Notes under the pieces: model-generated
Seen by the model: only the letters and a program-made list of their open reading frames with translations
Database searches by the model: none
What the model was told of the DNA's origin: nothing
Translations under genes and position numbers: made by a program
Assembly (NCBI GenBank): GCA_041917695.1
Contig: JAYRXE010000037.1
Span: forward strand, 609,013-673,012
Length of the DNA: 64,000 nt
From: Minisyncoccota bacterium
Lineage (GTDB): Bacteria; Patescibacteriota; Minisyncoccia; UBA6257; GWB1-50-10
Direction of reading: 5' to 3'
Shown: piece after piece, positions 36,140-63,477 of the stretch
How the letters are laid out: each line of letters begins with the position of its first letter
Position numbering within the stretch: position 1 is the first letter of the stretch

Positions 36140-36154
36140 GTAACGCCCTTCCGG

Positions 36155-36227
36155 TGGGTCAGGAAGGATTTGAACCTTCGGTCGCCGAGGTATAAGCTCG
36201 GTGCTTTAACCACTAAGCTACTGACCC
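36155..36227 (-). tRNA. tRNA-Ile with anticodon UAU (reads AUA without a lysidine-modified CAU)
   Basis: Manual fold: acceptor GGGTCAG/CTGACCC, D-arm GCTT-AGTGGTTA-AAGC, anticodon stem CCGAG/CTCGG with loop CTTATAC (anticodon positions 34-36 = TAT), T-arm GAAGG-TTCAAAT-CCTTC. 73 nt. Confidence 0.65.
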
Positions 36228-41350: not shown

Positions 41351-43828
41351 ATGCCTAAGAAAAAAGAAGAACCCATCATCCCCGCGGAAGCCTCGAGGGG
41401 AATCATCGAAGAACGCGAAATCACCACCGAACTCCGCGAATCGTACCTCGATTACGCGATGTCCGTCATCGTTTCCCGCGCCCTTCCGGACGTGCGGGAC
41501 GGCTTGAAGCCCGTCCAACGGCGCCTTTTGTGGACCATGTGGGAAAACGGCATGACACACCAGTCGAAGCACCGCAAATCAGCGGTCGCCGTCGCCGATA
41601 CCATGGGACGCTACCACCCCCACGGCGATTCTTCGATTTACGACACGATGGTGCGCCTCGCGCAGGATTTTTCGCTTCGCTATCCGCTCGTTGACGGCCA
41701 GGGAAACTTCGGTTCCATTGACGGCGACGGCGCCGCCGCCTTCCGCTATACCGAAGCGCGGCTCGCGAAGATCGCCGGCGAACTTTTGGGCGACATCGAC
41801 AAGGAAACCGTCGAATGGCAGGGAAACTACGACAACTCCCGCAAAGAGCCGATGTATGTTCCCGCCAAGCTCCCGAACCTCCTTTTAAACGGAACGGTCG
41901 GCATCGCGGTCGGCATGGCGACTTCCATTCCGCCCCACAATTTGGGCGAATTGGCCGACGGCATCGTCCACCTCATCGAGAATCCGGACGCCACCGTCCG
42001 CGACCTCATGAAATTCATTCCCGGTCCGGATTTCCCGACGGGCGGGATCATTTTCGACAAAAAAGCCATCGAGGCGGCGTACGCAACCGGGCGCGGTCCC
42101 GTTACGATGCGGGGCGTCGCCACGGTTGAAGAAAAAAAGAACGGCCATCAGATCATCATCACGGAAATCCCGTATCAGGTGAACAAATCGGCGCTCATCA
42201 CGAAGATCGCCGAACTTGTTACGGAAAAGAAAATCGAAGGCGTTCGCGACTTGCGGGACGAATCCGACCGCGAGGGCATCCGCATCGCCATCGATTTGAA
42301 GACCGACGCGGCCCCGCAAAAAATCCTGAACCGCTTGTACCAATACACGGAGCTCCAAAAGAATTTTTCCTTTAACATGCTCGCGCTCCAAAACGGCATC
42401 CAACCGCAAGTGCTTTCCTTGAAGGACATCCTTGAAGCCTATGTCGACCACCGGAAAGTGATGGTGCGCAGGCGGACGGAGTTTGACCTGAAGAAGGCCG
42501 AGGAACGCGCGCATATCTTGGAGGGGCTCGTGATGGCTTTGGGCGACATCGACAAGGTCATCCAGACCATCAAGAAATCGAAGAATCGCGAAGATGCCTT
42601 GAAAAACCTCATGGCGAAATTCAAATTCTCGGTCGCCCAGGGAAACGCCATCCTCGACATGCGGCTCTCCGCGCTCGCCGCGCTTGAACGCGAAAAACTC
42701 GAGAATGAATTGAAGGAAAAGAAAGCGCTCATCAAGGAGCTCCAGCTTATCCTGAAGAGTCCGAAGAAAATCCTCGACATCATCGTTCGGGAATTGAACG
42801 AGATGAAAGAGCAGTTCGGCGACGACCGCCGCACGAAGATCGTCGCGGGAGGACTCACCGAATTCAAAGAAGAGGATTTGATACCGAATGAAGAAACAAT
42901 GGTGGTGCTGACGCGCGACGGCTACATCAAACAGATGCCGCCGGCGCAATTCAGGAGCCAAAAGCGGGGCGGGAAGGGACTTATCGGCTTTGAATTGAAA
43001 GAAGAGGACTCCATCGAACAATTCATGTCCGCCGAAACGCACGACAACATCCTCTTCTTCTCCGAAAAGGGCAAGGTCTTCCAAACGAAAGTGTACGAGA
43101 TTCCCGTCGCCAGCCGGACGTCGCGCGGGAAATCCATCCACAATTACCTCGAGGTTCCCGGCAACGAAAAGATCATGGCCATGGTCGCGTATTCGGGCGA
43201 TGAAAAACGGAAGGAAGAGAACCAGTATTTGGTGATGACAACGCGGCACGCCGTCATCAAAAAGACCGCCGTGAAAGACTTCAAAAACGTGCGCCGGAAC
43301 GGTATCGTGGCGCTTACTCTAAAATCCGGCGATTCGCTCGCCTGGGTGAAAACGTCTTCCGGCAACGACGAGTTCCTCCTGTCTTCCGAACAGGGCCAGG
43401 CGATTCGCTTCAAGGAAAAAGACGTGCGGGCGATGGGCCGCACCGCCGCGGGCGTGAAAGCGATGAACCTGAAAAAGGGGGACCAGCTCGCCGGCATCGA
43501 TATCATCAAGAAGAGCGACGCAAAATCCGTACGGCTTCTCACCATGATGGCGAACGGCTTCGGCAAACAAACGGCCCTTACCGAATACAAGGTGCAAAAA
43601 CGCGGCGGCGGGGGCGTGAAGACGAGCAAGGTGACGGAGAAAACCGGCAAGGTCATCGCGACGAAGATGGTGGACGACACCATGGAAGAAATCCTCGCCT
43701 TTTCGAAGAAAGGGCAGGCTATCAAAATGCCGCTTAAAGACATCCGAACCGCGAGCCGCGCGACGCAGGGCGTGCGCGTCATGAACCTTGAGAAAGGGGA
43801 TGAGCTTGTCGGTTTCGTTTGCCTCTAA
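41351..43828 (+). CDS. gyrA: DNA gyrase subunit A (no gyrB adjacent in this window)
   Basis: DYAMSVIVSRALPDVRDGLKPVQRR and the active-site Tyr region (AAAFRYTEARL). Beta-pinwheel C-terminal repeats. Confidence 0.9.
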   Translation: MPKKKEEPIIPAEASRGIIEEREITTELRESYLDYAMSVIVSRALPDVRDGLKPVQRRLLWTMWENGMTHQSKHRKSAVAVADTMGRYHPHGDSSIYDTMVRLAQDFSLRYPLVDGQGNFGSIDGDGAAAFRYTEARLAKIAGELLGDIDKETVEWQGNYDNSRKEPMYVPAKLPNLLLNGTVGIAVGMATSIPPHNLGELADGIVHLIENPDATVRDLMKFIPGPDFPTGGIIFDKKAIEAAYATGRGPVTMRGVATVEEKKNGHQIIITEIPYQVNKSALITKIAELVTEKKIEGVRDLRDESDREGIRIAIDLKTDAAPQKILNRLYQYTELQKNFSFNMLALQNGIQPQVLSLKDILEAYVDHRKVMVRRRTEFDLKKAEERAHILEGLVMALGDIDKVIQTIKKSKNREDALKNLMAKFKFSVAQGNAILDMRLSALAALEREKLENELKEKKALIKELQLILKSPKKILDIIVRELNEMKEQFGDDRRTKIVAGGLTEFKEEDLIPNEETMVVLTRDGYIKQMPPAQFRSQKRGGKGLIGFELKEEDSIEQFMSAETHDNILFFSEKGKVFQTKVYEIPVASRTSRGKSIHNYLEVPGNEKIMAMVAYSGDEKRKEENQYLVMTTRHAVIKKTAVKDFKNVRRNGIVALTLKSGDSLAWVKTSSGNDEFLLSSEQGQAIRFKEKDVRAMGRTAAGVKAMNLKKGDQLAGIDIIKKSDAKSVRLLTMMANGFGKQTALTEYKVQKRGGGGVKTSKVTEKTGKVIATKMVDDTMEEILAFSKKGQAIKMPLKDIRTASRATQGVRVMNLEKGDELVGFVCL

Positions 43829-43924: not shown

Positions 43925-45220
43925 ATGCAAAAATTCAATCTTAAATACCTCGTTTTCGGCATTGCCGGCCTCTTTGTGCTTTTCGTCGCATTGGTTTTCA
44001 CGGGTGTCATCCCCGGCCTCCGCGAAAAAGCCGACAAGCCCACTGTTACGGGATCAATCACCGTATGGACGGTAGGGGAGGAAACGCGCGACCGTGAAAA
44101 AGCCTGGAAAGACCTGGTGAAATCGTTTCAGGGGACCTACCCCGGCGTGAAAGTCGAGAGCAGGAATTTCCGCACCTACGAATCGTATGAAAACGCCCTC
44201 GCGGATTCCTTCGGCTCCGGAGAGACTCCCGACGTCTTTATGGTTTCGAACACGGCATTCCCCCGGTACGAGAACAAGCTTGCCCCGGCGCCCGCCTCGC
44301 TCTTTTCCCTTGAATCGCTCCGCGCTCTCTTTCCAAAAACCGTTGAGAACGACTTCGTTTCAGAGGGGAAAATCTATGCGCTTCCGCTCTCGATCGACAC
44401 GCTCGCCCTCATTTATAACCGGAATCTCATCGACCAGGCCGCCGTTGCCGTCCCGAAAACCTGGGCTGAATTTGAAAGCGCCGTTCCGCAACTCACCCGC
44501 GCGGACGTGTCGGGTATCCAGTCCGCAGGCGCGGCGATTGGCACCGCCGGAAACGTTCCGTATGCCGCAGACATCATTTCGCTCCTCATGCTCCAGCGAA
44601 ACATTCCCATGACCGCGGGAAGCCGTGCGGTTTTCAACACCGCCCCGGGAAAAGACGCGCTGGGGTTCTACACGCAATTCGCCGACCGTGCAGGCGCCGC
44701 ATATTCCTGGAATGAAACCATGCCCCAGGCGACGGATTTCTTCGCCCAGGAAAAAGTGGGCATGCTGATCGGCTATCGCTCGACGATCGATGCGCTGAAA
44801 TCGAAGAATTCATTCCTGGATATCGGCGTCGCTGAAATTCCTTCCGATAGCGCTTCGTCCAAAAAATCTTTCGCCCGCTACATGGCTCTCGCCGTCTCAA
44901 AGCAGTCAAAAAGCCAGCCGGCGGCATGGGCGTTCGTATCAGCCGTCTCCACGAACGAAACGTGGCTCAAACCGTACTTGGCCCTCACGAAAGAAGCTCC
45001 CGCCCTCCGTTCCCTCGCCCTTCTTTCGAAAGACGACCCGGCTATCGGCGTATTTTCACGGCAGGCGCTTACGGCTACGACCTGGAAACAGGCGGACGAC
45101 CGCGCTGTCGCGAGCGCCTTTCAGGCGATGATCGAAAGCGTGAATACGAACGAGAAAACGCCGGAGCGGGCCCTTGATGACGCAGCCGCGGAGATCTCCC
45201 GCTCGATGCAAAAAAAATAA
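43925..45220 (+). CDS. Extracellular solute-binding protein (carbohydrate-type ABC substrate-binding fold) with an N-terminal TM anchor; no adjacent permease genes
   Basis: SBP_bac_1-like length and composition. It sits alone, followed by the pilin-like array. Confidence 0.55.
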   Translation: MQKFNLKYLVFGIAGLFVLFVALVFTGVIPGLREKADKPTVTGSITVWTVGEETRDREKAWKDLVKSFQGTYPGVKVESRNFRTYESYENALADSFGSGETPDVFMVSNTAFPRYENKLAPAPASLFSLESLRALFPKTVENDFVSEGKIYALPLSIDTLALIYNRNLIDQAAVAVPKTWAEFESAVPQLTRADVSGIQSAGAAIGTAGNVPYAADIISLLMLQRNIPMTAGSRAVFNTAPGKDALGFYTQFADRAGAAYSWNETMPQATDFFAQEKVGMLIGYRSTIDALKSKNSFLDIGVAEIPSDSASSKKSFARYMALAVSKQSKSQPAAWAFVSAVSTNETWLKPYLALTKEAPALRSLALLSKDDPAIGVFSRQALTATTWKQADDRAVASAFQAMIESVNTNEKTPERALDDAAAEISRSMQKK

Positions 45221-45224
45221 TCCT

Positions 45225-45704
45225 ATGCGCACCCTCATTTCACTCTTCTTTTTTTCACTAATCGCCCTTACCGCCGCTGTTCCTGCCGCCGCTCTCGCCC
45301 AGACGGGAAACGAAAGCATCACCAACATTTGGCGAGGCACGGGAAACGGAACAATCACCTGCAATCAGCGGGGCATGCAGTGCACGCTTTGCGACGGCAT
45401 CCGCGTTGCGAAGAATGTCACTGAATTTCTTACGGTGATTGCCGTCGCCCTTGCCGTCCTCATTATCATGTACGGCGCGCTCCGCATGATGACGTCTGGC
45501 GGAAATGAGAACTGGCTCTCTGCGGGGAAGGAGGCGATTCTTAAGGCACTCCTCGGCCTCGCCATCGTCGCCGCCTCGTGGCTCATCGTCGACACGGTAT
45601 TCAAGGCGCTTACTGAGAACGAAACGTGGAATTCGTTCGACCCGATTGGGTGCAAGAATGGCGCATTTATCCAGAATCCTCCGAAGGGGAACCAAAATCC
45701 GTAA
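45225..45704 (+). CDS. Pilin-like small secreted protein, paralog 1 (VirB2/TrbC-like topology: signal peptide, two hydrophobic helices flanking a GG-charged loop)
   Basis: Signal peptide ...AAALA|QTG. Helix, then RMMTSGGNENWLSAGKEA, then helix. The start is assigned to the ATG at 45225. Confidence 0.5.
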   Translation: MRTLISLFFFSLIALTAAVPAAALAQTGNESITNIWRGTGNGTITCNQRGMQCTLCDGIRVAKNVTEFLTVIAVALAVLIIMYGALRMMTSGGNENWLSAGKEAILKALLGLAIVAASWLIVDTVFKALTENETWNSFDPIGCKNGAFIQNPPKGNQNP

Positions 45705-45727
45705 CGGCTCTTCGGTATACTGAATAT

Positions 45728-46078
45728 ATGGAAAAGAATACCCCGAGAACGATTCCCCACGGCGCACGGCGTTTCTTCGCAGGCATTCCCTTCGTGTACG
45801 CCCAGGCGCCGGAAAGTATTGAACTCAGAAATCCGCTTGCAGCGGGAAACGACCTTGAATCGGTTTTGAAATCGGTCGGCGATTGGCTCATCCTCATCGC
45901 GACGCCGATTGCCATTTTCATGATTCTCGTCGGCGCGTTTTGGATACTCGTATCGGGAGGGGAGCCGGACAAGATTAAAAAAGGCAAGCAGACAATATTG
46001 TGGACCCTTATTGGCTATGCTATACTCTTGCTTGGAACTGAAATAGCCAATCTTATTTCAGGATTTTTCAGTCAATAG
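45728..46078 (+). CDS. Pilin-like small secreted protein, paralog 2
   Basis: Signal peptide ...VYA|QAP. ...ILVGAFWILVSGGEPDKIKKGKQTILWTLIGYAILLL... Confidence 0.5.
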   Translation: MEKNTPRTIPHGARRFFAGIPFVYAQAPESIELRNPLAAGNDLESVLKSVGDWLILIATPIAIFMILVGAFWILVSGGEPDKIKKGKQTILWTLIGYAILLLGTEIANLISGFFSQ

Positions 46079-46106
46079 AAAGGTCGGAGCAATTCAAACC
46101 CATTTC

Positions 46107-46457
46107 ATGAAGAAAGTATTTGCATTCGTATCCGTTTTCGCGATAGTCATGAGCCTCGCCTCGGTCGCGAGCGCGCAGTTTGGAGGCACGGCGACGTTCG
46201 TCACCGGCATCACCGGCATCGGCGGCGTCCAGAGCGTGCTTGAGAAAATCTCGACGTGGTTTCTCACCATCGTCATCGCACTTTCCGTTCTTTTCTTCGT
46301 TTATGCAGGTTTCCTTTACGTAACCTCCGGCGGAGACGATGACAAGGTCAAAAACGCCAAGAACTTTCTCCTCTACGGCGTCATCGGCATTGCGGTCGCG
46401 CTTCTCGCCGCGGCAATCACGAACGTCGTTCAGGGTCTTGTCGGCGAAACCGCCTAA
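46107..46457 (+). CDS. Pilin-like small secreted protein, paralog 3
   Basis: Signal peptide ...VASA|QFG. ...LFFVYAGFLYVTSGGDDDKVKNAKNFLLYGVIGIAVALL... Confidence 0.5.
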   Translation: MKKVFAFVSVFAIVMSLASVASAQFGGTATFVTGITGIGGVQSVLEKISTWFLTIVIALSVLFFVYAGFLYVTSGGDDDKVKNAKNFLLYGVIGIAVALLAAAITNVVQGLVGETA

Positions 46458-46479
46458 GGCACCCTTCTGAAGTACCGCT

Positions 46480-46800
46480 ATGCGTCTTCTAAAAGCACTT
46501 TCCTGCATAACGATCCTCGCCCTCTGCCTTGCGCCGGTAGTAGCCGGTGCGCAAAGCGGGGATCCGTTGCCGAGCCGCGTCGTAACGCTTGTTGACCGGG
46601 CGCAATCATGGTTTCTCAACATCATCATCAGCATCTCGGTCATTATGATTCTCGTCGGCGCATTCTACTTCGTCACCGCAGGCGGGGACGAAGACAAGGT
46701 TGAAACGGCGAAGAAATATATTCTCTACGCCGCCGTCGGCCTTGCCATCGCGCTCCTGGCGAAGGCAATCGTCGAAATCGTGCAAAGCTTCGTCGCATAA
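46480..46800 (+). CDS. Pilin-like small secreted protein, paralog 4
   Basis: Signal peptide ...VAGA|QSG. ...ILVGAFYFVTAGGDEDKVETAKKYILYAAVGLAIALL... Confidence 0.5.
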   Translation: MRLLKALSCITILALCLAPVVAGAQSGDPLPSRVVTLVDRAQSWFLNIIISISVIMILVGAFYFVTAGGDEDKVETAKKYILYAAVGLAIALLAKAIVEIVQSFVA

Positions 46801-46889
46801 GACGAAACGCATAAACAAAAAATCCCCACACGGGGATTTTTTGTTTGTCGCTTACCAAGCGGGACAAAAAGAAATATCATTAACTCCAC

Positions 46890-46974
46890 GCTGGGGTGGC
46901 GGAATTGGCAGACGCGCAAGGCTTAGGACCTTGTGAGAGTTTCTCTCGTGGGAGTTCAAGTCTCCCCCCTAGCA
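46890..46974 (+). tRNA. tRNA-Leu (anticodon UAG), class II with a long variable arm
   Basis: Manual fold: acceptor GCTGGGG/CCCTAGC (one G-U), anticodon stem CAAGG/CCTTG with loop CTTAGGA, 15-nt variable arm, T-arm GGGAG-TTCAAGT-CTCCC, discriminator A. 85 nt. Confidence 0.85.
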
Positions 46975-46981
46975 CAAAACC

Positions 46982-48022
46982 ATGGAACACGAATCTGAAA
47001 AGAAAACGCTCGCACGGCTCATGCCGTATGTTTCACTGTGCTTTTTTTTCCTCGTCTCTGCAGGAGCGGCGGCATTCCAGAATCAACGGATAAACCCCGG
47101 CATCTTCCGGACGATGTTCGCGGGACCGCAACAGCAGATCTTTTTTTCCGGCCTTCGCACGCTTGTGATATTCATACTTTTTGGCCTGCTTTTTTCTGCG
47201 GTGGGATTTTCCATACGGGCGGTGCTCCACCGGCACGATGCCGCCCGCGTTCGCGAGTACCTTAAAAAATCCCCGAAAACCACCGCTCAGATTGCACGCC
47301 GCATCGTTTCATCCTTTTGGCTCGTCATTATGAACCTCATGCTCGTGCCAATCGTCATTTCATCCATCAACCGTTCCGCCGTCGGACGATTATGGGACGA
47401 ACGCATTCTCGCTCTCGACCGCACACTCACCGGTCTTTACCCCTTCATCGCGCTCGGCAATATTGCATATCCTTCGTGGCTCTTTGAATCCATCGCCTTC
47501 TCTTACTTCCAAATCGGCTCCGCACTCGTTGTTTTTGCCATCGTGCTCCTCATGAAGAGCAAACGGCTTTACCACGAGTTCGTCGCGGCGTATTTCATAT
47601 CCTTTATCGCTCTCATCCTCCTGTGGTTTTCCTTTCCCACCATTTCTCCGGTCGCGCGTTTCATTAAAAACGACTTCGCGCTCCGCACTTCTCCCGCGGT
47701 GAGCCGGGAACTTCACAATTACCACCCCAGCGAGCGCCTCAAGGGCATCCATCGGGATTGGAGCATCACGTCGGCGACCGCCTTCCCGAGCGCGCATATC
47801 GTCTGGCTCACGCTCATCGGAATCTATCTCTTCCGGTTCAACCGGAAGGGGTTTCTCATTACCTTGCCTTTCCTGCTTCTTTCAGCGTCGGGCACGGTGA
47901 TTCTCGCGGTGCATTATCTCGCCGACGTCTTCGCCGGGATTCTCGTCGCCGTTTTGGGAATGATTATCGCCGATTGGCTCGCGAAAAAACCGCTCCCTCA
48001 CCGATTACGACGCCTGCCGTGA
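46982..48022 (+). CDS. PAP2-superfamily membrane phosphatase (type-2 phosphatidic-acid-phosphatase fold) with an extended N-terminal membrane domain
   Basis: C-terminal PSGH-like (SFPSAHI) and SRxxxxxHxxxD-like (HYLADVFAGI) motifs. About 8 TM helices. Confidence 0.55.
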   Translation: MEHESEKKTLARLMPYVSLCFFFLVSAGAAAFQNQRINPGIFRTMFAGPQQQIFFSGLRTLVIFILFGLLFSAVGFSIRAVLHRHDAARVREYLKKSPKTTAQIARRIVSSFWLVIMNLMLVPIVISSINRSAVGRLWDERILALDRTLTGLYPFIALGNIAYPSWLFESIAFSYFQIGSALVVFAIVLLMKSKRLYHEFVAAYFISFIALILLWFSFPTISPVARFIKNDFALRTSPAVSRELHNYHPSERLKGIHRDWSITSATAFPSAHIVWLTLIGIYLFRFNRKGFLITLPFLLLSASGTVILAVHYLADVFAGILVAVLGMIIADWLAKKPLPHRLRRLP

Positions 48023-48882
48023 AAACTTTTATGTATCTCTTTCAGCTCTTTGTTGGTGAGATGCGTATAGATTTGTGTCGTTGAGACATTCGCGTGCCCC
48101 AAGAGCGCCTGCACCGAACGGAGGTCGGCGCCGTTTATTAAAAGGTCGGTTGCAAACGAATGCCGTATTTGGTGCGGATGGACGCGTTTTGCAATGCCCG
48201 CTTTCCGCGCATACCGGTCGACTAACCTCTCCACAGTGCGGGAGGTGATGCGCCCGATGACCTTTCCGGCGCGGGAAAAACTCGCGAAAAGATACTCTTC
48301 GGGATCCGTGCGCTTTTCGAGATAGCGCTTGATCGCCGTCTTCGCTCCGTCGGAAAGGAAGACGATGCGCAATTTGTCGCCCTTTCCGCGAACGGAGAGC
48401 TCTCCGCGGACGAGGTCCATGCGGCGGGGGAGCGCGCACAATTCCGAGACGCGCAAGCCGGTGGAAAAAAGCGTTTCGAGAAGCGCTCGGTCCCGGAGCG
48501 CGGCGATATCGTTTCCTTCGGGCGCCTTGAGGAGCCTTTCCAATTCGGCATACTCAAGCGTTTCGATATCCCGCCGCGCTATTTTCGGGAGCTCAATCAC
48601 GTCCGGAGAGACCGGCGCCCCGCCCCGCTTCGCCAAAAACTTCAGGAAATTCCGTATGGCGATGACGTAATAGCTTTGCGTCGCTTTCTTGAGATTTTTG
48701 CGCGCGAGCGAAGCGCGGAAGGTCCGAATACTTCCCTCTGAGATGTCCGCCGTACTTTTCAGATTCGTCTCGGCGAAAAAAGCGCGCAAATAACGGCTGT
48801 AATTCTCAACTGTTTTCTCCGACCGGTTCTTTTCGATGACCAAATAGTCGAGGTATTCCTGGAGTGCCGTATCTGCCTTCAT
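47998..48882 (-). CDS. xerC: Site-specific tyrosine recombinase, XerC/XerD type
   Basis: N-terminal SAM-like domain (LQEYLDYLVIEKNRSEKTVENY). Catalytic R...K...HxxR...Y (ARGGAP, HQIRHSFAT, LGHANVSTTQIYTHL). 294 aa from the ATG at 48882. The long track ORF is over-extended. It overlaps the PAP2 gene convergently by 25 nt. Confidence 0.85.
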   Translation of the reverse strand: MKADTALQEYLDYLVIEKNRSEKTVENYSRYLRAFFAETNLKSTADISEGSIRTFRASLARKNLKKATQSYYVIAIRNFLKFLAKRGGAPVSPDVIELPKIARRDIETLEYAELERLLKAPEGNDIAALRDRALLETLFSTGLRVSELCALPRRMDLVRGELSVRGKGDKLRIVFLSDGAKTAIKRYLEKRTDPEEYLFASFSRAGKVIGRITSRTVERLVDRYARKAGIAKRVHPHQIRHSFATDLLINGADLRSVQALLGHANVSTTQIYTHLTNKELKEIHKSFHGRRRNR

Positions 48883-48915
48883 TGAGAGTAGTGTACCACG
48901 ATTTCCCTGCCTATT

Positions 48916-48944
48916 TTGACATTTTCCGGGCTTTACGGTAGAAT
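48916..48944 (+). promoter_or_regulatory. Consensus sigma70 promoter of rpsO: -35 TTGACA, 17-nt spacer, -10 TAGAAT; 10 nt before the ATG
   Basis: Exact hexamers and spacing. The predicted transcription start is 3-4 nt from the start codon, so the mRNA is leaderless or near-leaderless. Confidence 0.65.
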
Positions 48945-48954
48945 CCTTCCATCT

Positions 48955-49221
48955 ATGCTTTCTAAGACGAAAAAGACCCGCGTCATCGCGGACTATAAAC
49001 TGCACGAAACGGACACGGGTTCCGCCGAGGTGCAAATCGCGCTTTTGACGCGCCAGATCAAGGAACTCGCCGACCACCTGAAAAAACACCCGAAAGACCA
49101 CCACTCCCGCCGCGGCCTTCTGATGATGGTCGGCAAACGCCGCCGGTTCATGCAGTTTCTCCAGAAAAGCGACGTTAAAAAGTACGAGAAGCTTTCGAAG
49201 AAACTCGCGCTCGACCTCTAA
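48955..49221 (+). CDS. rpsO: 30S ribosomal protein S15
   Basis: MLSKTKKTRVIADYKLHETDTGSAEVQIALLTRQIKELADHLKKHPKDHHSRRGLLMMVGKRRR. Start assigned to the ATG at 48955. The track start is over-extended. Confidence 0.9.
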   Translation: MLSKTKKTRVIADYKLHETDTGSAEVQIALLTRQIKELADHLKKHPKDHHSRRGLLMMVGKRRRFMQFLQKSDVKKYEKLSKKLALDL

Positions 49222-49236
49222 GCTCTTCGTCCGGCC

Positions 49237-49788
49237 ATGCACGCAAACGAACGGGTCGGAATCTTCGTCGATGCCCAGAACATCTACCATTCGGCGAAAA
49301 ATCTCCGCGCCTCGCGGGTAAACTTTTCCGAGCTGAAACGCGCCCTCCTTGCGGGGCGTTCTGCTATACGCGCCTTTTCATACGTGGTGCGGAGCGAAGA
49401 AGAACTCCAGGAAAAAACCGGCGAGGAGTCTTTTTTTGAAGCCCTCAAAAACGCGGGCTTTGAATTAAGGCTGAAAGACATCCAGGTATACCCCGGAGGA
49501 TTTAAGAAAGCCGATTGGGACGTGGGACTCGCCATCGATGCCGTCCGTATCGCCTCCTCGCTGGATACGGTCATTCTCGTAACAGGAGACGGAGACTTCA
49601 TTCCGCTCGTTGAATACCTCAAATGGGGATTGGGAAAGCGGGTGGAAGTTGCGGGATTTTCACGGACGACCTCCGGCAAGCTCCGTGAAGTCGCCGACCA
49701 ATTCACCGAACTCGACAAGCTCCCCAAAATGCTCATCCCCATCAACCAAAAACGGGGGCGGGGACGATTCCCAAAAAAGGCGAAATAA
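49237..49788 (+). CDS. NYN/LabA-like domain protein (predicted PIN-like ribonuclease), inserted between rpsO and pnp
   Basis: GIFVDAQNIY...VILVTGDGDFIPLV pattern of NYN-domain proteins. Confidence 0.6.
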   Translation: MHANERVGIFVDAQNIYHSAKNLRASRVNFSELKRALLAGRSAIRAFSYVVRSEEELQEKTGEESFFEALKNAGFELRLKDIQVYPGGFKKADWDVGLAIDAVRIASSLDTVILVTGDGDFIPLVEYLKWGLGKRVEVAGFSRTTSGKLREVADQFTELDKLPKMLIPINQKRGRGRFPKKAK

Positions 49789-55245: not shown

Positions 55246-56136
55246 ATGGTAATGAGTATAGCACAAGAAGGCGGGGGAGACCAGCTTTTTAAGGGTGTTC
55301 GCCCCAAGAAGTCCCTGGGCCAGCACTTCCTAAAGGATAAGAAGGTTATACGTGATATTTTAGCCCTCCTGGAGCCTGAAAAGGGCTGTATTTATGCGGA
55401 AATTGGCCCCGGGAAGGGACAGCTTACCTTTCCTTTTTTGGAACGGGAAAGGGAAAGGGGGAGCCATAATCGGTACTTTGCCCTTGAAAAAGATGATTTC
55501 CTGGCTGAAAACCTCAAAAAAGCCCTTAAAACCTATGATTTTAGCGCATTTGCAGAAGTCATCCACGGGGATGCAATCGACGAAATCCCCAGGTTAACCA
55601 CAAGGGCCTCTACGGAAGACCTAGTGGTGTTCGGTAATATCCCGTACTACCTCACCGGAAAACTCATGCGGACCCTGTGGGGCCTCCCCAAACCCCCGAA
55701 AAAGGCGGTTTTCATGGTCCAATGGGAGGTTGCAGAGCGTATCGGGGAAGAAAAAGGCCCCATGTCGAAGCTTCGCGCGGCGGTTGAGTTTTGGGGGAAG
55801 CCTTCCATAGCCTTTAAGGTCCCGAAAAACCGTTTCTCGCCGCCCCCCAAAGTTGATTCGGGAGTCGTTGTGATAACCGGAAAGGAGGGGAGCGAGAAAT
55901 GGCCCGACCGCCTGAAGGGAACTTACGAGGAAATCTTCGGCGCCCTTTTCTCCCAGCCGCGGAAGACTGCTCTCAACAATCTTTCCGCGATTTTTGGCGA
56001 TAAGAAGACCACCGAAGAATTCATCCGCTCCCTGAAACTCGAACCCGCGCAAAGACCGCACGAAATCTCATCAAAAAGCATTCTCGCGATGGCGGAAGTG
56101 TTGTATAATGAGCGCAATGGAGCGCAGAAAAAATAA
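55246..56136 (+). CDS. rsmA: 16S rRNA (adenine1518/1519-N6)-dimethyltransferase
   Basis: LGQHFL and EIGPGKGQLT SAM-binding motifs. Start candidates at 55225, 55246 and 55252. 55246 is chosen because of the -10 element at 55233-55238. Confidence 0.8.
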   Translation: MVMSIAQEGGGDQLFKGVRPKKSLGQHFLKDKKVIRDILALLEPEKGCIYAEIGPGKGQLTFPFLERERERGSHNRYFALEKDDFLAENLKKALKTYDFSAFAEVIHGDAIDEIPRLTTRASTEDLVVFGNIPYYLTGKLMRTLWGLPKPPKKAVFMVQWEVAERIGEEKGPMSKLRAAVEFWGKPSIAFKVPKNRFSPPPKVDSGVVVITGKEGSEKWPDRLKGTYEEIFGALFSQPRKTALNNLSAIFGDKKTTEEFIRSLKLEPAQRPHEISSKSILAMAEVLYNERNGAQKK

Positions 56137-56518
56137 GCTTGGTCTGCCTTTATTTTGCATTTTCGTATTTTTCGCAGTCGCGAGCTTTTTTACGGCGCCG
56201 CGCGCGTCGGCAATCGATATTTTTCGTCCTTATGGAGGCCGTGTAATTCCGCGCATCGGGACAATTTGCACCGGAGGGGAGCCGGCATTCGACGTCAAAA
56301 CGACGTACGGCACCGTGGAAGGCCCTTTTGCCACCACGCCGCTCACGCGCCGGTACCAATACTTCAGTATTTGGGGTTCGCCGCTTAGAAACATCCTTCT
56401 TCTTGCCTTTCCCTACCAAGCGCCCACCTGTGTAAAACCCTGCGACGAAGATCCCACGACGCCATGCCCCTTTACGGCATATTCGGTTTATTCGTTCGGC
56501 ATTTCACTCATTCCCTAA
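56117..56518 (+). CDS. Small secreted Cys-rich protein, hypothetical
   Basis: Signal peptide (LGLPLFCIFVFFAVASFFTAPRASA). About 9 Cys. It overlaps the rsmA end. Confidence 0.4.
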   Translation: MERRKNKLGLPLFCIFVFFAVASFFTAPRASAIDIFRPYGGRVIPRIGTICTGGEPAFDVKTTYGTVEGPFATTPLTRRYQYFSIWGSPLRNILLLAFPYQAPTCVKPCDEDPTTPCPFTAYSVYSFGISLIP

Positions 56519-56522
56519 CGCT

Positions 56523-57290
56523 ATGAAATCGCGCATGAACCCGAAAAGGAAATTTTATACCGCGCTCTGGATACTTGGCGGCGCGCTTTTCGTCTCAACG
56601 TGGATCATACTCGGCACCACCCACCCGGCAATCGATCCCATTTCGATGTTGCGCGGAGAAAAAACTTCGGACAACCGCTTCCTTTTCGGCGGGGAGAATG
56701 GAAGCGACCCACTGAACACTTCGGACTTCACCTCGAACGTCATCGAAAAATACGGTTTCCATATCGCCATCCAAAATCCGGACGGGCCGGTCGATAAATA
56801 CCTCGCCCTCCCTTCGGCGGAGAAACTTGAACTCGCGCTTCAGGAAGAACTCAAAAAAAGCATCCCGTACGACGCGGCGTCGGAAAGTGATTTGCGCGTG
56901 ACGAACGATACGTCGGACGCCACCGTGCGGCGATATCTGGAGAATTTGAAAAACACCGCCGCAAAACAGCGCATTGATTTCAATACGGATCTCGGCGTCG
57001 CCTTGAACGACCTCACTTCAAAAAACGATTCGGGAAAGCTCGAGAAGCTCGCAACGAAGTTTGATTCGCTTGCCGGGGATCTGCTTTCCGTCACCGTTCC
57101 CGGCTCCTGGAAAGTCTTCCATCTCGAACTCGTGAATATCCACCGCCATAAAGCGGCGGCACTCCATGCGCTTGCCGACATAGATAACGATCCGGTGAAA
57201 GCTGCCGTGGCCGCCGCGGAACTTCGGAGCATCGGAGCGGCAGAGCTGTCGCTTTCCGCTATCCTCTCGGAAAAAAGCAAAGACCTGTAA
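56523..57290 (+). CDS. Membrane-anchored extracytoplasmic protein, hypothetical
   Basis: N-terminal TM anchor (FYTALWILGGALFVSTWIIL), then a 220-aa soluble domain. Confidence 0.45.
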   Translation: MKSRMNPKRKFYTALWILGGALFVSTWIILGTTHPAIDPISMLRGEKTSDNRFLFGGENGSDPLNTSDFTSNVIEKYGFHIAIQNPDGPVDKYLALPSAEKLELALQEELKKSIPYDAASESDLRVTNDTSDATVRRYLENLKNTAAKQRIDFNTDLGVALNDLTSKNDSGKLEKLATKFDSLAGDLLSVTVPGSWKVFHLELVNIHRHKAAALHALADIDNDPVKAAVAAAELRSIGAAELSLSAILSEKSKDL

Positions 57291-57292
57291 GC

Positions 57293-59011
57293 ATGCACCG
57301 TTCAATGTATTCAAAAATCATCACCGCGGCACTTATTCCCGTACTCATCACCGGCGGCTTTTTCTTCCCGCACAAAGCGCGAGCGCAATCGGTGGATAAA
57401 TGCCTTTCAGGAGCCCTTTCCGGCATCATGGGTGATATTTTGGGCGGGTTTCTCCCGTCGATTCCTGGCCTGGATCAGAAGGTCCCCACGTCCGACCAAG
57501 GCGCCCAAAAAGGAACGCGCGCGTTTCAGTTCGACGAATGCATCAAAAGCATCACTGATGCCGCGCTCAAGGTTGCGCTCCAGAACCTGAAGAAAAAACT
57601 TCTCGACAACATGGTTGACGATACCATTGCCTGGATTCGCGACGACCGCGAGCCGAAATACATAACGAACTTCAAAGACTTCACGGAAAGCGCCGTCGAG
57701 GAAGCGGCGAATAACACCCTCCGCGAAATCGACCTCGCGAACCTCTATCCGGACCCTGCGCTTCAGGAAGGCATCAAAGCGGCGATCATGGAACGCGTCC
57801 GCTCGGTCAGATTTTCCGACACCATTGCGTGCACCCTTACCGATGAAGTGAATGTCGATGAATTCAAAGGTGATTTTAGAAAAGGCGGCTTTGCCGGACT
57901 CCAAGTCGCTTCCATGCCGAATAATAACCCCGAAGACGTTGCAATGATGGCGCGTCTTTTCGCCCAGGCGAATGAAGAACAGCAACTTGCTGCAAAGAAC
58001 GCTCTTTCCTCGGGCCTCACACAATCCGATGTTGATTGCACCCAATGGGTGCTCGCGAAATCGAGCGGCGGCATCGGCGGAGCGGCGGGCGCATATTACA
58101 AAGACGCCAACGGTAACATGAAGATTGAAATCACGGAACCTCAACAGGAAGCGCCCGTTTCGAATATTCCCAACACGAAATACATTTGCCAGGATGACGC
58201 GACCGGAAGCGGCCAATATGTATCCACTCCGCCTACCGTTGTTGACGCTATCGCCGCCAAAGTGGCGACGCAGGATATTGATTACGTATTAGGCATGGAT
58301 GATATCCAGGGCTATATTTCCGGAATCGCCGACGCGGTCTTCAATCGAATTCTTAAGGGCGGATTCAATCTCTTTGAACGGGGAGGGGACCCAAGCTCAT
58401 ATCTTGAAGGCCTCGAGGGGGATATTGAAAACTATCAAAGCATCGAAACGGGAGAGAAGCTTCAAGGCCAGGCGAATGAACAGGTAAAACGCGCGCTTAT
58501 CTCCAAGACCAATCTTCTCATCGATACGGCTTCAACAAGCCTTTCGGCAACGAATGCGGCGCTTACGAAAGCAACTGCGCTCTTACCAATGATGAATGCG
58601 ACCTCAAGCCCCGAGGGGCTTGCCGTGTGCATGGATTACCATCCCGCCTTCTTCCCGGCATTTATAAATCCCGACCCGACTCCTTCGTGGTGGCCCACGG
58701 GAAACCGGACCGTCATCATGCAAAAACTCCGCGCCGTTTCGGGAACTCTCACGGGCCTCACTAATCCTTTCAAGACGTTTTGGGAGAATGGGAAAACAAG
58801 CGCCGCTGATTACCAGACCCAAGCCCAGGCGATCACCGGTTCGACTCCGCCGAATGTGATTTCGACGCTCCAGGCGAATGTGAACGCATTGGAAGCCTCG
58901 CTGAACGCAAAAACAGGGGAATCGAGCGCCCATAATTCCCTCGTGAACGATTTCTATGCGCAGGGAGCGCGGGAGCGCAACCGGTGCGTCGGTCCGGCAA
59001 ATTCGAGCTAA
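57293..59011 (+). CDS. Large secreted protein, hypothetical
   Basis: Signal peptide (...HKARA|QSV). 572 aa, no recognised motifs. Its stop overlaps the next start (TAATG). Confidence 0.45.
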   Translation: MHRSMYSKIITAALIPVLITGGFFFPHKARAQSVDKCLSGALSGIMGDILGGFLPSIPGLDQKVPTSDQGAQKGTRAFQFDECIKSITDAALKVALQNLKKKLLDNMVDDTIAWIRDDREPKYITNFKDFTESAVEEAANNTLREIDLANLYPDPALQEGIKAAIMERVRSVRFSDTIACTLTDEVNVDEFKGDFRKGGFAGLQVASMPNNNPEDVAMMARLFAQANEEQQLAAKNALSSGLTQSDVDCTQWVLAKSSGGIGGAAGAYYKDANGNMKIEITEPQQEAPVSNIPNTKYICQDDATGSGQYVSTPPTVVDAIAAKVATQDIDYVLGMDDIQGYISGIADAVFNRILKGGFNLFERGGDPSSYLEGLEGDIENYQSIETGEKLQGQANEQVKRALISKTNLLIDTASTSLSATNAALTKATALLPMMNATSSPEGLAVCMDYHPAFFPAFINPDPTPSWWPTGNRTVIMQKLRAVSGTLTGLTNPFKTFWENGKTSAADYQTQAQAITGSTPPNVISTLQANVNALEASLNAKTGESSAHNSLVNDFYAQGARERNRCVGPANSS

Positions 59012-61572
59012 TGTTCTCAAAAATCTTCACCCAAGGAACCAGGAAAACCGCCCGCATCGTCGCGGGTATTTCCCTTTTCTTTGCGCTCGCGATAAGTGCC
59101 ACCCCCGCCGTCGCCCACGCACAGGCGCTGAAATCGATTGTGAGCGCGGTCGGAGGACCCGTGGTAAGCGGGGTTCTTAACGCACCCGAAATCGTGAAGA
59201 CCGCGACGAGCAAGGTGACTGAAGCCACGCTTGAAGCAACCTTCGCGCCGGTCACCCTTCTCACGGGCCTGGTGCGCATCATGGGTGGTTTCGTGCTCGC
59301 GCTCGTTTCCTACATTCTCGGTTTCATCATCGACCTCAATTTCAACATCCTGAATCCCGACCTCGCAACGTATAAATTCATCGCGACGGGATGGAGCATC
59401 ACCCGCGACATCGCGAATCTCGGGTTTGTGCTTTTCATCATCCTTATCGCCCTCGCGACCATCGTCCGTTTCCAGGATTACGAAGCAAAACGGCTCTTGC
59501 CGAAACTCATCGCCGCGGCCATTCTCGTGAACTTCAGCCTCGCCATCCCGACGGTGCTCTTGAATTTTACGAACGTCATGACGAACTACTTCCTCGACCG
59601 CATCGGCGATCCCTCCGCTCAAGGACTTGAAGGGGTAAGCGGAAGCGTGCGTTTCGCGGTGGAACTCGCCACGCTTTTCAAGCCCCAAAGCTTCATCCTG
59701 ACCGATCCTTCCGCCCAGGACATCTCGTATCTCGCGGGAGGCCCCATCACCGGCGGCGCCGCAGAAGGCTATTTGAACTTCTCGTCTTCGATGACGGCGC
59801 GTCTCGTGAACATGATATTCCTGGCCATCTGCATATTCGTCATCGGCACCCTGGCTATCCTTTTCGTCATACGATTCGTATGGCTCAGCTTCCTTCTCGC
59901 CATCGCACCTATCACCTGGCTCACCTGGGTGATTCCCGGCCTCGAAGGCAATTTCAGCAGTTGGTGGAAGAAATTCATGCAACACGCGTTCTTCATGCCC
60001 CTTTCCATCTTCTGCATCTACCTCGTGATTCTCACGGGAGACGGATTCTACGCCATCGCGCAAAACCGGGATACCTCGCTCTTCAGCGCTTCCGGCGTCT
60101 CCGACCTCTTCAAACAGACGATGATGTACGGTTCCGTGCAAATACTCTTGGCGGCGTTCATGATCGGTTCGCTTATCGTGGGTCAAAAACTCTCCATCGA
60201 AGGCGCGGGGAAATCGCTTTCCATCGGCAAATCGTGGGCGAACGCGACGCGCGGATGGGCGAAGAAACGGACCCTCGAAGGCGGAAAACGCGCAGCTTCC
60301 TCCAGCATGGGTCGGGGTCTCGCCCAAAGGATGGCCCTTTCAAACAACGCCGTAATAAGCTCTCTCGGCAAACGCCTTCACGGAACAACGCTCGGGTGGG
60401 CTGCCGAACGCGAAAAACAAGCCGACAAGAATGTTCAAAAATACACCGGCGGGGATTTGGAGCTTGCGGCGGCATTCCATAAAAACGCGCTTTTCGCCGA
60501 AGAAAAGGCAGGATATGAACGGATGGTCAGCAAGGCCGGCGGGGATGTAAATAAAGACGTAAAAGACAAGGAAGAAAAGCTAGAAACCGCTGAGGAAAAG
60601 GAATTGCAGGAAGCGGCCCGCTCGCTTAAAGCGCAAAAATATGCATCGGAAATTGCGAACAAGATTCATGTTCTTGAAAATGATTTAACTAATAAGCCGG
60701 CTGAAATCACCGCAAACAACGCGGAAATCCAGCGTCTTGAGAATGAAATCCAAACCCTCGAATCAAAAATCAGATTTGAAACCGATCCCGCAAAGAAAAG
60801 CGCGCTCGAACGGCAAAAGACCGGTTTGGAAGGGCAGAAGTCAGCCTTACAAACAAAGGATGCTTCGCTCAACAAAGAGCTTAAGGAGCTGGGTGACAAA
60901 CTTGATGGCGCGCGGAAAGAATATGTCCGCGCAAACGCCCAGTTTGAAAAGGCGCTTGATTCGGCTGAAGACGCCGCTGAAAAGAAGGGTGACGCCGCGA
61001 AGAATCTTGCAAAAGCGCAAACTACGCAGGACGATTTCAACCTGCGCGTCATGCAGCGCCTTGATGCTAACACCCGCAACCAGCTGAAATCCTCGAATTT
61101 CGATCTCTCAAAGACAAATCTTGCCGGCTCCCGAAAAGCGAAAGACAAACAGATTCCCGAACTCCAAATGGACAAGCTCCAAAAGGAGATGAAGCGTCTC
61201 GCGGACGAAGTTAAGAAAGCTGATGATGCTTACACCAACGCCTCAAAACCGGGTTCCTTCGCAAAACCGGAAGAGATAGCGGCGGCGCTTGAATGGAAGA
61301 ATAAGAAGTCGGAAGAACATACCCAGCTTCAAATGCAGGTAACGAGATTCAAGACTGCGCAGACCGAACTTGAAAATTCCCGGCGCGACCTCTCAACCTT
61401 CACTACGAGGGGAGGGAGTAGGACGGACCCCCGGTACGCCGCACTTCTTGAGAAAATGGAAAAAGCCGAAAAGAATTACTGGCGCGTAGCGAAATTCAAC
61501 CCCTCCCGTCCCGCAGGATTCAACCAGAAGGGAAAGGGCGGGAAGAAAGAAGATAAAGACGACGACGAATAA
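59011..61572 (+). CDS. VirB6/TrbL-like polytopic membrane protein with a roughly 400-aa C-terminal coiled-coil extension (putative type IV secretion inner-membrane component)
   Basis: Signal peptide, then about 6 TM helices, then a very long heptad-rich charged tail (KELQEAARSLKAQKYASEIANKIHVLENDLTNK...). Translationally coupled to the upstream gene. Confidence 0.45.
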   Translation: MFSKIFTQGTRKTARIVAGISLFFALAISATPAVAHAQALKSIVSAVGGPVVSGVLNAPEIVKTATSKVTEATLEATFAPVTLLTGLVRIMGGFVLALVSYILGFIIDLNFNILNPDLATYKFIATGWSITRDIANLGFVLFIILIALATIVRFQDYEAKRLLPKLIAAAILVNFSLAIPTVLLNFTNVMTNYFLDRIGDPSAQGLEGVSGSVRFAVELATLFKPQSFILTDPSAQDISYLAGGPITGGAAEGYLNFSSSMTARLVNMIFLAICIFVIGTLAILFVIRFVWLSFLLAIAPITWLTWVIPGLEGNFSSWWKKFMQHAFFMPLSIFCIYLVILTGDGFYAIAQNRDTSLFSASGVSDLFKQTMMYGSVQILLAAFMIGSLIVGQKLSIEGAGKSLSIGKSWANATRGWAKKRTLEGGKRAASSSMGRGLAQRMALSNNAVISSLGKRLHGTTLGWAAEREKQADKNVQKYTGGDLELAAAFHKNALFAEEKAGYERMVSKAGGDVNKDVKDKEEKLETAEEKELQEAARSLKAQKYASEIANKIHVLENDLTNKPAEITANNAEIQRLENEIQTLESKIRFETDPAKKSALERQKTGLEGQKSALQTKDASLNKELKELGDKLDGARKEYVRANAQFEKALDSAEDAAEKKGDAAKNLAKAQTTQDDFNLRVMQRLDANTRNQLKSSNFDLSKTNLAGSRKAKDKQIPELQMDKLQKEMKRLADEVKKADDAYTNASKPGSFAKPEEIAAALEWKNKKSEEHTQLQMQVTRFKTAQTELENSRRDLSTFTTRGGSRTDPRYAALLEKMEKAEKNYWRVAKFNPSRPAGFNQKGKGGKKEDKDDDE

Positions 61573-61577
61573 CCACC

Positions 61578-62921: not shown

Positions 62922-62922
62922 C

Positions 62923-63432: not shown

Positions 63433-63477
63433 ACTCCGATTGGTAAAGAAAGGGCCAGTCGGCTAAAATAGGGGAGT

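Follow-up and report, generated by a model that had tools for sequence, protein, structure and literature searches.

A tandem array of four VirB2-like pilin genes led by a solute-binding protein gene in a Minisyncoccota bacterium

The window analysed here, a 64,000-nucleotide stretch of the genome of a Minisyncoccota bacterium (contig JAYRXE010000037.1, positions 609,013 to 673,012), carries four consecutive small genes for VirB2-like pilins immediately downstream of a gene for a membrane-anchored solute-binding protein (SBP) of the SBP_bac_1 family (Table 1). By profile matching, the four genes belong to the Pfam family PF18895 (T4SS_pilin); they form an array of ancient, ordered and subtype-specific paralogs, and the SBP gene is the conserved first gene of the pilin operon and not an incidental neighbour. 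On balance, we lean towards an interpretation in which the array encodes four specialised, non-redundant VirB2-like pilins of a chromosomal, monoderm-type type IV secretion system (T4SS), in an ancient operon led by the membrane-anchored, sugar-type SBP. The array itself is an ordinary member of a published class, and what looks unreported is the SBP-led, subtype-ordered operon architecture; no paper mentioning a linkage between SBP and pilin genes was found in the literature. Patescibacteria make up a large share of bacterial diversity and live attached to host cells, and in the one genetically tractable species the T4SS, together with its pilin array, is essential for growth on the host.

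Family and layout of the four pilins

All four proteins exceed the gathering cut-off of PF18895 (26.6 bits, applied to the whole-protein score) with scores of 36.1-44.9 bits and E-values of 7e-9 to 1e-11, a family match far beyond chance, and the same assignment is already precomputed for identical proteins in public metagenomes. With at least two tandem PF18895/PF04956 genes and a VirB4-like open reading frame (ORF), the locus falls, judged from its sequence, within the published definition of a Patescibacterial VirB2-like array (PMC12102498). The original prediction, made from the DNA sequence, had assigned the genes to the VirB2/TrbC-like pilins of T4SSs, and this assignment stands by way of PF18895, although the classical TrbC/VirB2 family PF04956 (cut-off 27.9 bits) is reached by none of the four: paralog 1 scores 17.5 bits, paralog 2 scores 23.2 bits, and paralogs 3 and 4 are unmatched. 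Many relatives match both families. Nine of ten diverse homologs from the first position of the array pass PF18895 and one also passes TrbC/VirB2; one g1-type relative (the subtype of pilin 1) reaches PF04956 at 30.4 bits; and many homologs carry precomputed matches to both PF18895 and PF04956, some of them being named ‘VirB2 component (pilin)’ by their sources. Named homologs are found in metagenome-assembled genomes (MAGs) of Parcubacteria, Gracilibacteria and Saccharimonadales. When a profile of the four pilins was run against the 717 six-frame ORFs of the window, no further copy was found (next match E = 0.37).

The four ORFs are separated by 22-28 nt and, according to hydropathy profiles and alignment, share a common layout: a hydrophobic leader ending in (A/V)-x-A and followed by Gln, some 15-45 exposed residues, a hydrophobic helix, a short polar loop and a second hydrophobic helix. 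The shared two-helix topology that had been proposed is thus confirmed, as are the lengths of pilins 2 to 4, with pilin 1 one residue shorter than the predicted 160. The polar loop follows the pattern S/T/A-G-G-acidic...K...K; the motif given originally was S/TGG-(D/N/E)x(D/E)K(V/I)x2(A/G)K, and the loop of paralog 1, SGGNENWLSAGKE, deviates from it. Likewise, a Sec signal peptide had been claimed for all four proteins, and the leader with its predicted (A/V)-x-A-Gln site is clear in paralogs 1, 3 and 4 and marginal in paralog 2. Pairwise identity among the four is 22-38%, somewhat below the 30-40% first estimated, with pilin 4 the closest paralog of pilin 3 (37.5%).

An AlphaFold2 model of pilin 3, the canonical member, was obtained with a mean predicted local distance difference test (pLDDT) score of 80 from a 51-sequence alignment. 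The model comprises a leader helix (residues 3-23) and a hairpin of two long helices (residues 38-72 and 78-115; hairpin pLDDT 84-94), and this predicted arrangement is the fold expected of a pilin. Both hydropathy and the model thus place the protein within the VirB2-type description of two hydrophobic helices joined by a short polar loop. Comparison by hhalign with a profile of genuine VirB2/TrwL/TrbC proteins, built from annotated plasmid proteins after a VirB2 sequence had been validated against annotated Ti plasmids, returned a probability of 37% and E = 3.6e-4, a weak match to a small profile, in which the A-x-A-Q cleavage site and helix 1 fall weakly in register. This result is suggestive and not proof, and it is likely, though not demonstrated, that PF18895 is a remote branch of VirB2/TrbC. 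A tblastn search of plasmids with paralog 2 gave four weak actinobacterial matches, one of them annotated ‘pilin’, with no recognisable T4SS genes annotated nearby.

The generic nature of the helical hairpin, together with the absence of experimental characterisation of PF18895, could be taken to mean that the pilin label is a naming artefact and that the proteins belong to some unrelated family of two-helix membrane proteins, such as holins, ATP synthase c-like proteins or a domain of unknown function. We consider this very improbable. Assignment to a holin or DUF4190 was the outcome that the original prediction had named as counting against it, and the Pfam scan gave no match to holin, ATP-synt_C or DUF4190 for any of the four proteins, with only weak chance matches to other membrane families. 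In contrast, sub-threshold to threshold matches to TrbC/VirB2 occur throughout the family, a cleavable leader followed by two helices is the VirB2 layout, and an association with T4SS genes has been documented (PMC12102498).

The linked solute-binding protein and the order of subtypes

The SBP of the window is full-length and of the sugar/oligosaccharide type, its closest solved relatives by profile being GacH and MalE-type proteins. It is anchored by a single hydrophobic segment at the N-terminus (residues 3-34), contains a conserved IPGL motif and lacks a lipobox, and its stop codon lies 4 nt before pilin 1. No BPD_transp or ABC_tran match, as expected of an ABC permease or ATPase partner, was found among the 46 window ORFs scanned.

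The strength of the linkage to the pilins was apparent from a metagenome scan that used SBP-derived patterns only and yielded 80 loci (47 clusters at 70% identity, 19 at 50%), in which the SBP is 34-43% identical to that of the window. Pilins follow the SBP homolog directly and on the same strand in all 72 informative loci, that is, those with at least ~400 nt of sequence downstream of the SBP (the remaining 8 end within 400 nt of it), with one to seven pilin cores in each; in none of the metagenome loci does a pilin lie upstream of the SBP. The gap between SBP and first pilin has a median of 12 nt, and many of the gene pairs overlap at ATGA. The gene upstream of the SBP is GyrA in 42 of 66 loci, with nine other contexts represented, and the persistence of the SBP-pilin adjacency across ten upstream contexts indicates that the link is tighter than the surrounding synteny. 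By comparison, none of 30 control loci with more distant SBP homologs has pilins beside the SBP. The original prediction had described the gene as an orphan solute-binding protein; the family holds, but the gene is no chance neighbour of the array.

When one genome per species was scanned with an SBP profile, the picture was similar, with pilins directly after the SBP in Liptonbacteria (4), Falkowbacteria (8) and another MAG (5), and with one MAG in which three pilins lie divergently upstream of the SBP. Some of these loci have no other neighbour in common with the window. No close relative turned up among the species representatives: SBP identity reaches at best 38%, and the GyrA proteins of MAGs labelled Saccharibacteria and Liptonbacteria share 61-63% identity with that of the window. 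One locus (L054) was too short to be informative.

The control loci with distant SBP homologs include some of the Peregrinibacteria/Gracilibacteria type (L016, L018, L020, L021, L023, L024 and L033), in which the SBP lies among putative envelope-glycan genes, flanked by a GT2-like glycosyltransferase and a polytopic membrane protein of 415 aa. Both of these neighbours were recognised by their N-terminal sequence only; the SBP is lipoprotein-like in several of the loci, with a Cys-containing leader, and here too an ABC permease gene is not obvious nearby. The one Firmicutes SBP locus inspected (Bacillus, L026) has two permease-like ORFs of 312 and 268 aa, recognised by position, directly following, whereas the SBP homologs from the candidate phyla radiation (CPR) lack permease-like neighbours of this type. 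The setting in the Peregrinibacteria/Gracilibacteria-type loci suggests a general tie between orphan SBP-fold proteins of CPR bacteria and functions of the cell envelope.

Each position of the array has its own sequence marks. In pilin 1, three Cys (C-x6-C-x2-C-D) immediately precede helix 1, and the C-terminal tail contains W-x8-C; all four Cys are conserved when pilin 1 is aligned with the first pilins after the SBP from other lineages. The signature of subtype g1 is C...C-x2-C-D/H ahead of helix 1 and, behind helix 2, a tail containing W-x(n)-C. At least three Cys are found in 68 of the 72 first pilins of the SBP-led metagenome loci and in 34 of the 161 later ones. The exposed N-terminal part of pilin 2 contains an NPL motif, and NP[LIVM] is present in 36 of 47 g2-type pilins, compared with at most two in each other subtype. 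A large subclass of arrays occurs strictly together with an orphan binding protein, membrane-anchored and of the sugar type, and with a first pilin that bears cysteines.

Further forms of the pilin domain were seen outside this scheme. Many public proteins are poly-pilins with 2 to 17 tandem PF18895-like units (examples are among P0087-P0236, P0013 and P0016-P0035; P0091 has 17 units in 1775 aa), and at least two units are present in 8 of the 201 pilin ORFs of SBP-led loci. Fusion would be compatible with the topology, since both ends of every unit lie outside the cell; the poly-pilins may be genuine fusions, or they may be artefacts of read-through where genes were called with the wrong genetic code. 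A specific ‘Rosetta stone’ link between g2 and g3, drawn from the subtypes of di-pilins, was dropped because the subtype classification proved too noisy. In some lineages SBP-adjacent pilins carry large, Cys-rich extracellular extensions (L013 10008-10874; L015 9377-10366 and 10448-11044), of which that in L013 may end in a lysozyme- or transglycosylase-like domain; P0070 has a possible peptidase-like tail. Fusions of pilins to enzymes, if that is what these are, would be compatible with a part in making contact with host walls or breaking through them.

The age of the array is evident from its relatives, in which the same array was found: for each pilin of the window the best match is the gene at the same position, with identities of 44-49% (g1), 57-64% (g2), 60-62% (g3) and 50-61% (g4), compared with 76-80% for GyrA and 50-56% for the SBP. 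This positional, one-to-one orthology implies that the duplications predate these lineages. Furthermore, the order g1 > g2 > g3 (/g4) persists where the SBP shares no more than 34-43% identity with that of the window. When 72 distant arrays were classified with profiles of the four ortholog groups, the first pilin was g1-type in 61-63 of the 64 that could be classified, the second gene was usually g2, and later genes were g3 or g4. The number of pilins per SBP-led array varies from 1 to 7 between lineages, with lineage-specific expansion mainly in the g3/g4 types, whose copy number is variable. The array is thus old, as had been proposed from the divergence of its members.

The accompanying proposal, that the array is diversifying for antigenic or host-specificity variation, fares differently. 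The four pilins would on this account be interchangeable major pilins, as proposed for the VirB2 paralogs of Bartonella and Anaplasma, and the low paralog identity of 22-38% and the lineage-dependent copy number of g3/g4-type genes in arrays of 1 to 7 pilins would fit it; in fact, the published survey proposes such variation for Patescibacterial arrays, whose variability may aid adaptation to different hosts (PMC12102498). Against it stand the positional orthology, the conserved order and the subtype-specific exposed motifs, as well as the strain-level data: among co-occurring strains (99.4-99.6% DNA identity) the array shows 5 single-nucleotide polymorphisms (SNPs) in 1503 bp, a level no higher than that of flanking housekeeping genes, only two of the changes are non-synonymous, and both of these lie within leader peptides. 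Neither repeats nor pseudogene cassettes were seen in the array itself. The evidence does not support antigenic diversification, and we give the interchangeable-pilin account hardly any credence. Orthology, fixed order, subtype motifs and the lack of excess polymorphism point together to specialised, non-interchangeable subunits, and the ancient, ordered subtypes favour a heteromeric structure built of such subunits and speak against the published antigenic-variation interpretation.

Proposed assembly and its genomic setting

A monoderm-type T4SS-like module begins 9.3 kb downstream of the array, as the roughly 10 kb predicted for a VirB4/VirB6-like module had indicated, with its core genes on the same replicon and strand, 9-17 kb from the pilins. 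It starts directly after ksgA, and having KsgA as a neighbour is typical of Patescibacterial virB4 loci (PMC12102498). This context and relatives named Liptonbacteria, Falkowbacteria and Parcubacteria point to the CPR affiliation of the bacterium. The ORF that runs off the window end matches the N-termini of the Mbov_0397 VirB4 model of an integrative and conjugative element (ICE), of TrsD and of the CD1110 VirB4-like model, in each case below threshold because the window end cuts the ORF; the nearest of these is the mycoplasma ICE VirB4. In the 862-aa protein, placed as VirB6-like by position and topology, ~400 residues of SMC-like coiled coil (TIGR02168, E = 9e-6) come after seven hydrophobic segments; the protein gives no match to Pfam TrbL/VirB6 and would be an unusually extended VirB6 candidate.

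In the assembly that we propose, the SBP and g1 to g4 would be expressed as one transcript that runs from downstream of gyrA to the hairpin at 46809-46851, a co-transcription suggested by the close spacing and the terminator. Judging from sequence and from the biology of VirB2, Sec would insert each pilin, and cleavage after (A/V)-x-A would leave the N-terminal Gln outside, with the hairpin in the membrane, the polar loop cytoplasmic and the C-terminus outside. By analogy with VirB2 systems, the VirB4-type ATPase and the VirB6-like and PrgI-like proteins would extract the subunits from the membrane, and these would polymerise into a heteromeric surface filament or a wall-spanning conduit that would serve in host contact. 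More speculatively, the two exposed tails of g1 could be tied by disulfides or metal, and g1 might form with the surface SBP a specialised tip or base that recognises host glycans in epibiotic attachment.

A bolder formulation, which we offer tentatively, is that the locus exemplifies an apparently undescribed, deeply conserved CPR module, in which translational coupling joins the membrane-anchored, sugar-type SBP-fold protein to a VirB2-like pilin locked by its cysteines, with NPL-type pilins and then canonical ones following in fixed order. The SBP and the cysteine pilin may be the host-glycan-sensing tip or base of a structure that is either a heteromeric T4SS filament or a capture organelle that depends on the SBP and not on a T4SS. 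If this is true, it would be the first link of substrate-binding-protein biology to a secretion-system pilus, and Patescibacterial ‘pilin arrays’ would be multi-subunit machines and not variation cassettes. The SBP ligand, an SBP-g1 complex and the disulfide or metal lock would be candidates for host recognition by such filaments.

Several observations weigh against the interpretation of the genes as specialised T4SS pilins. No PF18895 protein of any organism is known, from experiment or structure, to polymerise into a pilus, and the similarity of the four genes to classical VirB2/TrbC stays below threshold. A sequence-profile search of all PDB sequences found no pilin, its sole match being a designed repeat protein that we ascribe to chance, and a fold search with the hairpin model was non-discriminating, thousands of helical hairpins being matched and the best pilin (8dfu) reaching only E = 1.8. 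The pilin loops are not clearly positive, so the topology rests on leader cleavage, and the leader of paralog 2 is marginal, with a hydrophobic core of ~10 residues and with two of its three orthologs lacking a recognisable leader as called. Furthermore, the array is not contiguous with virB4, ~17 genes lying between them, and in four distant SBP-pilin loci with 8-kb flanks (L012-L015) no BLAST match to the T4SS-module proteins of the window was found, a test that is insensitive to proteins as highly divergent as these. The role of the SBP in the pilin system is pure inference.

The proteins could alternatively be T4SS components that are no pilus subunits at all, and instead are membrane- or wall-resident, helical-hairpin parts of a translocation channel or short stalk, comparable to the ‘pilin-like’ conjugal transfer proteins of mycoplasma ICEs and other monoderm systems, in which no extended pilus is made. 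Monoderm (MPF-FATA-like) T4SSs are generally without pili; the best NCBIfam similarity of three of the four paralogs is to NF045849 (Mbov_0395, ‘pilin-like conjugal transfer protein’), at 19.0, 30.6 and 24.1 bits for paralogs 2 to 4, with paralog 1 unmatched; and the partial VirB4-like ORF is also nearest to a mycoplasma ICE model. However, all NCBIfam matches are sub-threshold, those to NF045849 lying below its cut-off of 40 bits, and the presence of 4-11 paralogs with conserved exposed motifs and, in some cases, large extracellular extensions exceeds what the lining of a channel would seem to need; reviews, moreover, treat the Patescibacterial proteins as potential pilus formers. We regard the channel or stalk as unlikely.

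The SBP-pilin operon could also specify a surface or uptake apparatus that is independent of any T4SS, the hairpins forming a membrane ring, pore or fibre that captures or imports host glycans together with the SBP. The tight adjacency of SBP and pilins (72 of 72 loci), set beside the loose linkage to virB4 (9-17 kb in the window, and none detectable by BLAST within 8 kb in L012-L015), speaks for it, as does the SBP itself, which resembles sugar-binding proteins and for which no partner permease or ATPase of the ABC type was found among the scanned ORFs of the window, in bacteria of the CPR, which depend on scavenging. Yet no importer made of such hairpins is known, the family is defined by and statistically associated with Patescibacterial T4SS genes (1135 of 1948 near virB4), and the pilins of Southlakia lie inside a T4SS cluster that, in the accessible part of its description, has no SBP. 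This apparatus seems to us rather improbable.

The chromosomal neighbourhood gives the operon a stable setting (Table 1). The hairpin directly 3′ of pilin 4 is likely a bidirectional intrinsic terminator that ends the operon; it was not picked up by a simple consensus terminator scan. A tRNA-Leu after the array had been noted originally and was identified as tRNA-Leu(UAG), which lies at most 4 kb from the array in 23 of 50 related loci scanned, mostly just downstream; it is followed by genes for a PAP2 membrane protein and a Xer-type recombinase and by rpsO. Related contigs keep the neighbourhood of GyrA, SBP, four pilins, tRNA-Leu, PAP2, Xer and rpsO, and several metagenomes encode proteins identical to those of the window, in one case on a 680-kb contig. 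The genes of the window are those of the core chromosome of a small-genome bacterium (aminoacyl-tRNA synthetases, NusA, FtsK, RecA, FtsH, GyrA, PNPase).

Table 1. Coordinates of the SBP-pilin operon, its neighbours and the T4SS-like module in the window.
Feature	Position	Strand	Details
GyrA	41351-43828		upstream of SBP gene
Membrane-anchored SBP_bac_1 protein	43925-45220	+	431 aa; Pfam PF01547 91 bits
Pilin 1, subtype g1	45225-45704	+	159 aa; PF18895 36.1 bits
Pilin 2, subtype g2	45728-46078	+	116 aa; PF18895 37.4 bits; TrbC PF04956 23.2 bits, sub-threshold
Pilin 3, subtype g3, canonical member	46107-46457	+	116 aa; PF18895 44.9 bits
Pilin 4, subtype g4	46480-46800	+	106 aa; PF18895 38.6 bits
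Stem-loop directly 3′ of pilin 4	46809-46851	+	A-tract, GC stem, T-tract; -25.4 kcal/mol, z = -8.5 vs shuffles
tRNA-Leu(UAG)	46890-46975	+	ARAGORN
PAP2-family membrane protein	46982-48022		just after array
Xer-type tyrosine recombinase	47998-48882	-	294 aa; gene calls on identical contigs
Monoderm-type T4SS-like module	56108-64000	+	starts 9.3 kb downstream of array, directly after ksgA
Three signal-anchored or secreted proteins	from 56108	+	136, 255 and 572 aa; T4SS-like module
Polytopic ‘extended VirB6-like’ protein (candidate)	58984-61572	+	862 aa; coiled-coil tail; by position and topology only
447-aa protein	between 862-aa and PrgI/VirB3-like genes	+	T4SS-like module
PrgI/VirB3-like protein	62923-63432	+	PrgI PF12666 33.5 bits vs cut-off 27
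VirB4/TrsD-like ORF start	63475 to window end	+	N-terminal match to VirB4-like models, sub-threshold

A mobile element or island, as a tRNA with an integrase nearby might indicate, was considered and ruled out by the flat GC content across the window, the syntenic Xer-type recombinase and the conserved tRNA-Leu neighbour. The Xer-type recombinase is conserved in synteny and is therefore a housekeeping recombinase and not an island integrase; the mechanically derived 430-aa ORF at 47998-49290 on the minus strand is over-extended, the real call being 294 aa.

Two further features of the region were noted. The PAP2 gene has the highest strain SNP density of a 19.6-kb region (22 per kb, compared with 0-9 elsewhere), with 8 non-synonymous strain changes; its ortholog in relatives is 41% identical, and one relative has two copies. 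A tRNA-Ile with the anticodon UAU lies at 36153-36227 on the minus strand, beside tRNA-Val(UAC), and another is found in L012 (15-87). In most bacteria AUA is decoded by a lysidine-modified CAU tRNA, and the tRNA-Ile(UAU) hints at an unusual AUA-decoding strategy in this lineage.

Comparison with known systems

VirB2-like pilins (PF18895/PF04956) have been surveyed in 1,948 Patescibacterial assemblies, of which 1135 have a pilin gene near virB4, and 441 arrays of 2-11 pilin genes each, with a mean within-array identity of 25%, were described in 383 assemblies (Quinonero-Coronel et al., 2025; PMC12102498). In Southlakia epibionticum, six PF18895 genes (SEML1_0014-0019) lie inside a T4SS cluster and are essential for epibiotic growth (Wang et al., 2023; PMC10633639), and a 2025 review regards the Patescibacterial systems as unique among monoderm T4SSs for their potential conjugative-type pili (PMC12857230). 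The prior publication of such arrays (PMC12102498, PMC10633639) had been missed by the original prediction. The main text of McLean 2020 contains no passage on pilins. Among freshwater-specific protein-structure clusters no Pfam domain is more abundant than PF18895, and a search with a pilin profile matched 116,594 representative clusters at E <=0.001 among 1.84 billion representatives.

Like these published arrays, that of the window consists of tandem PF18895 genes on a CPR chromosome with a monoderm-type T4SS and with no evident relaxase nearby, its four genes fall within the range of 2-11, and its paralog identity (22-38%, against the published mean of 25%) is low. Unlike them, it lies outside the virB4 cluster, 9-17 kb upstream. 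The SBP_bac_1 lead, the cysteine-bearing first subtype and the conserved subtype order are unmentioned in the two studies (PMC12102498, PMC10633639), and the Southlakia cluster, so far as the accessible part of its description extends, has no SBP_bac_1 gene.

Compared with classical VirB2/TrbC proteins (Agrobacterium VirB2, R388 TrwL), the pilins of the window share a long leader, predicted to be cleaved, with A-x-A before Gln, two hydrophobic helices with a short loop, a small mature size and a presumed VirB4/VirB6-dependent assembly. They differ in profile similarity (PF04956 cut-off 27.9 bits, with scores of 17.5 and 23.2 for paralogs 1 and 2 and no match for the other two; hhalign 37%) and in setting, the classical proteins belonging to diderms with one major pilin and VirB5, whereas here four different subunits occur in a monoderm host. 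The Mbov_0395 proteins of mycoplasma ICEs (NF045849) are likewise small two-helix proteins of monoderm T4SSs, and the VirB4-like ORF adjacent here is closest to the mycoplasma ICE VirB4 model; unlike them, the genes of the window are chromosomal, multi-copy and SBP-linked, and score 19-31 bits against a cut-off of 40.

By analogy only, the array also resembles the major and minor pilins of type IV pili and type II secretion pseudopili, in which divergent paralogs in a fixed order have distinct roles, in a tip or initiation complex as opposed to the shaft. The fold and the assembly machine of those systems are completely different, and no homology is implied by the comparison.

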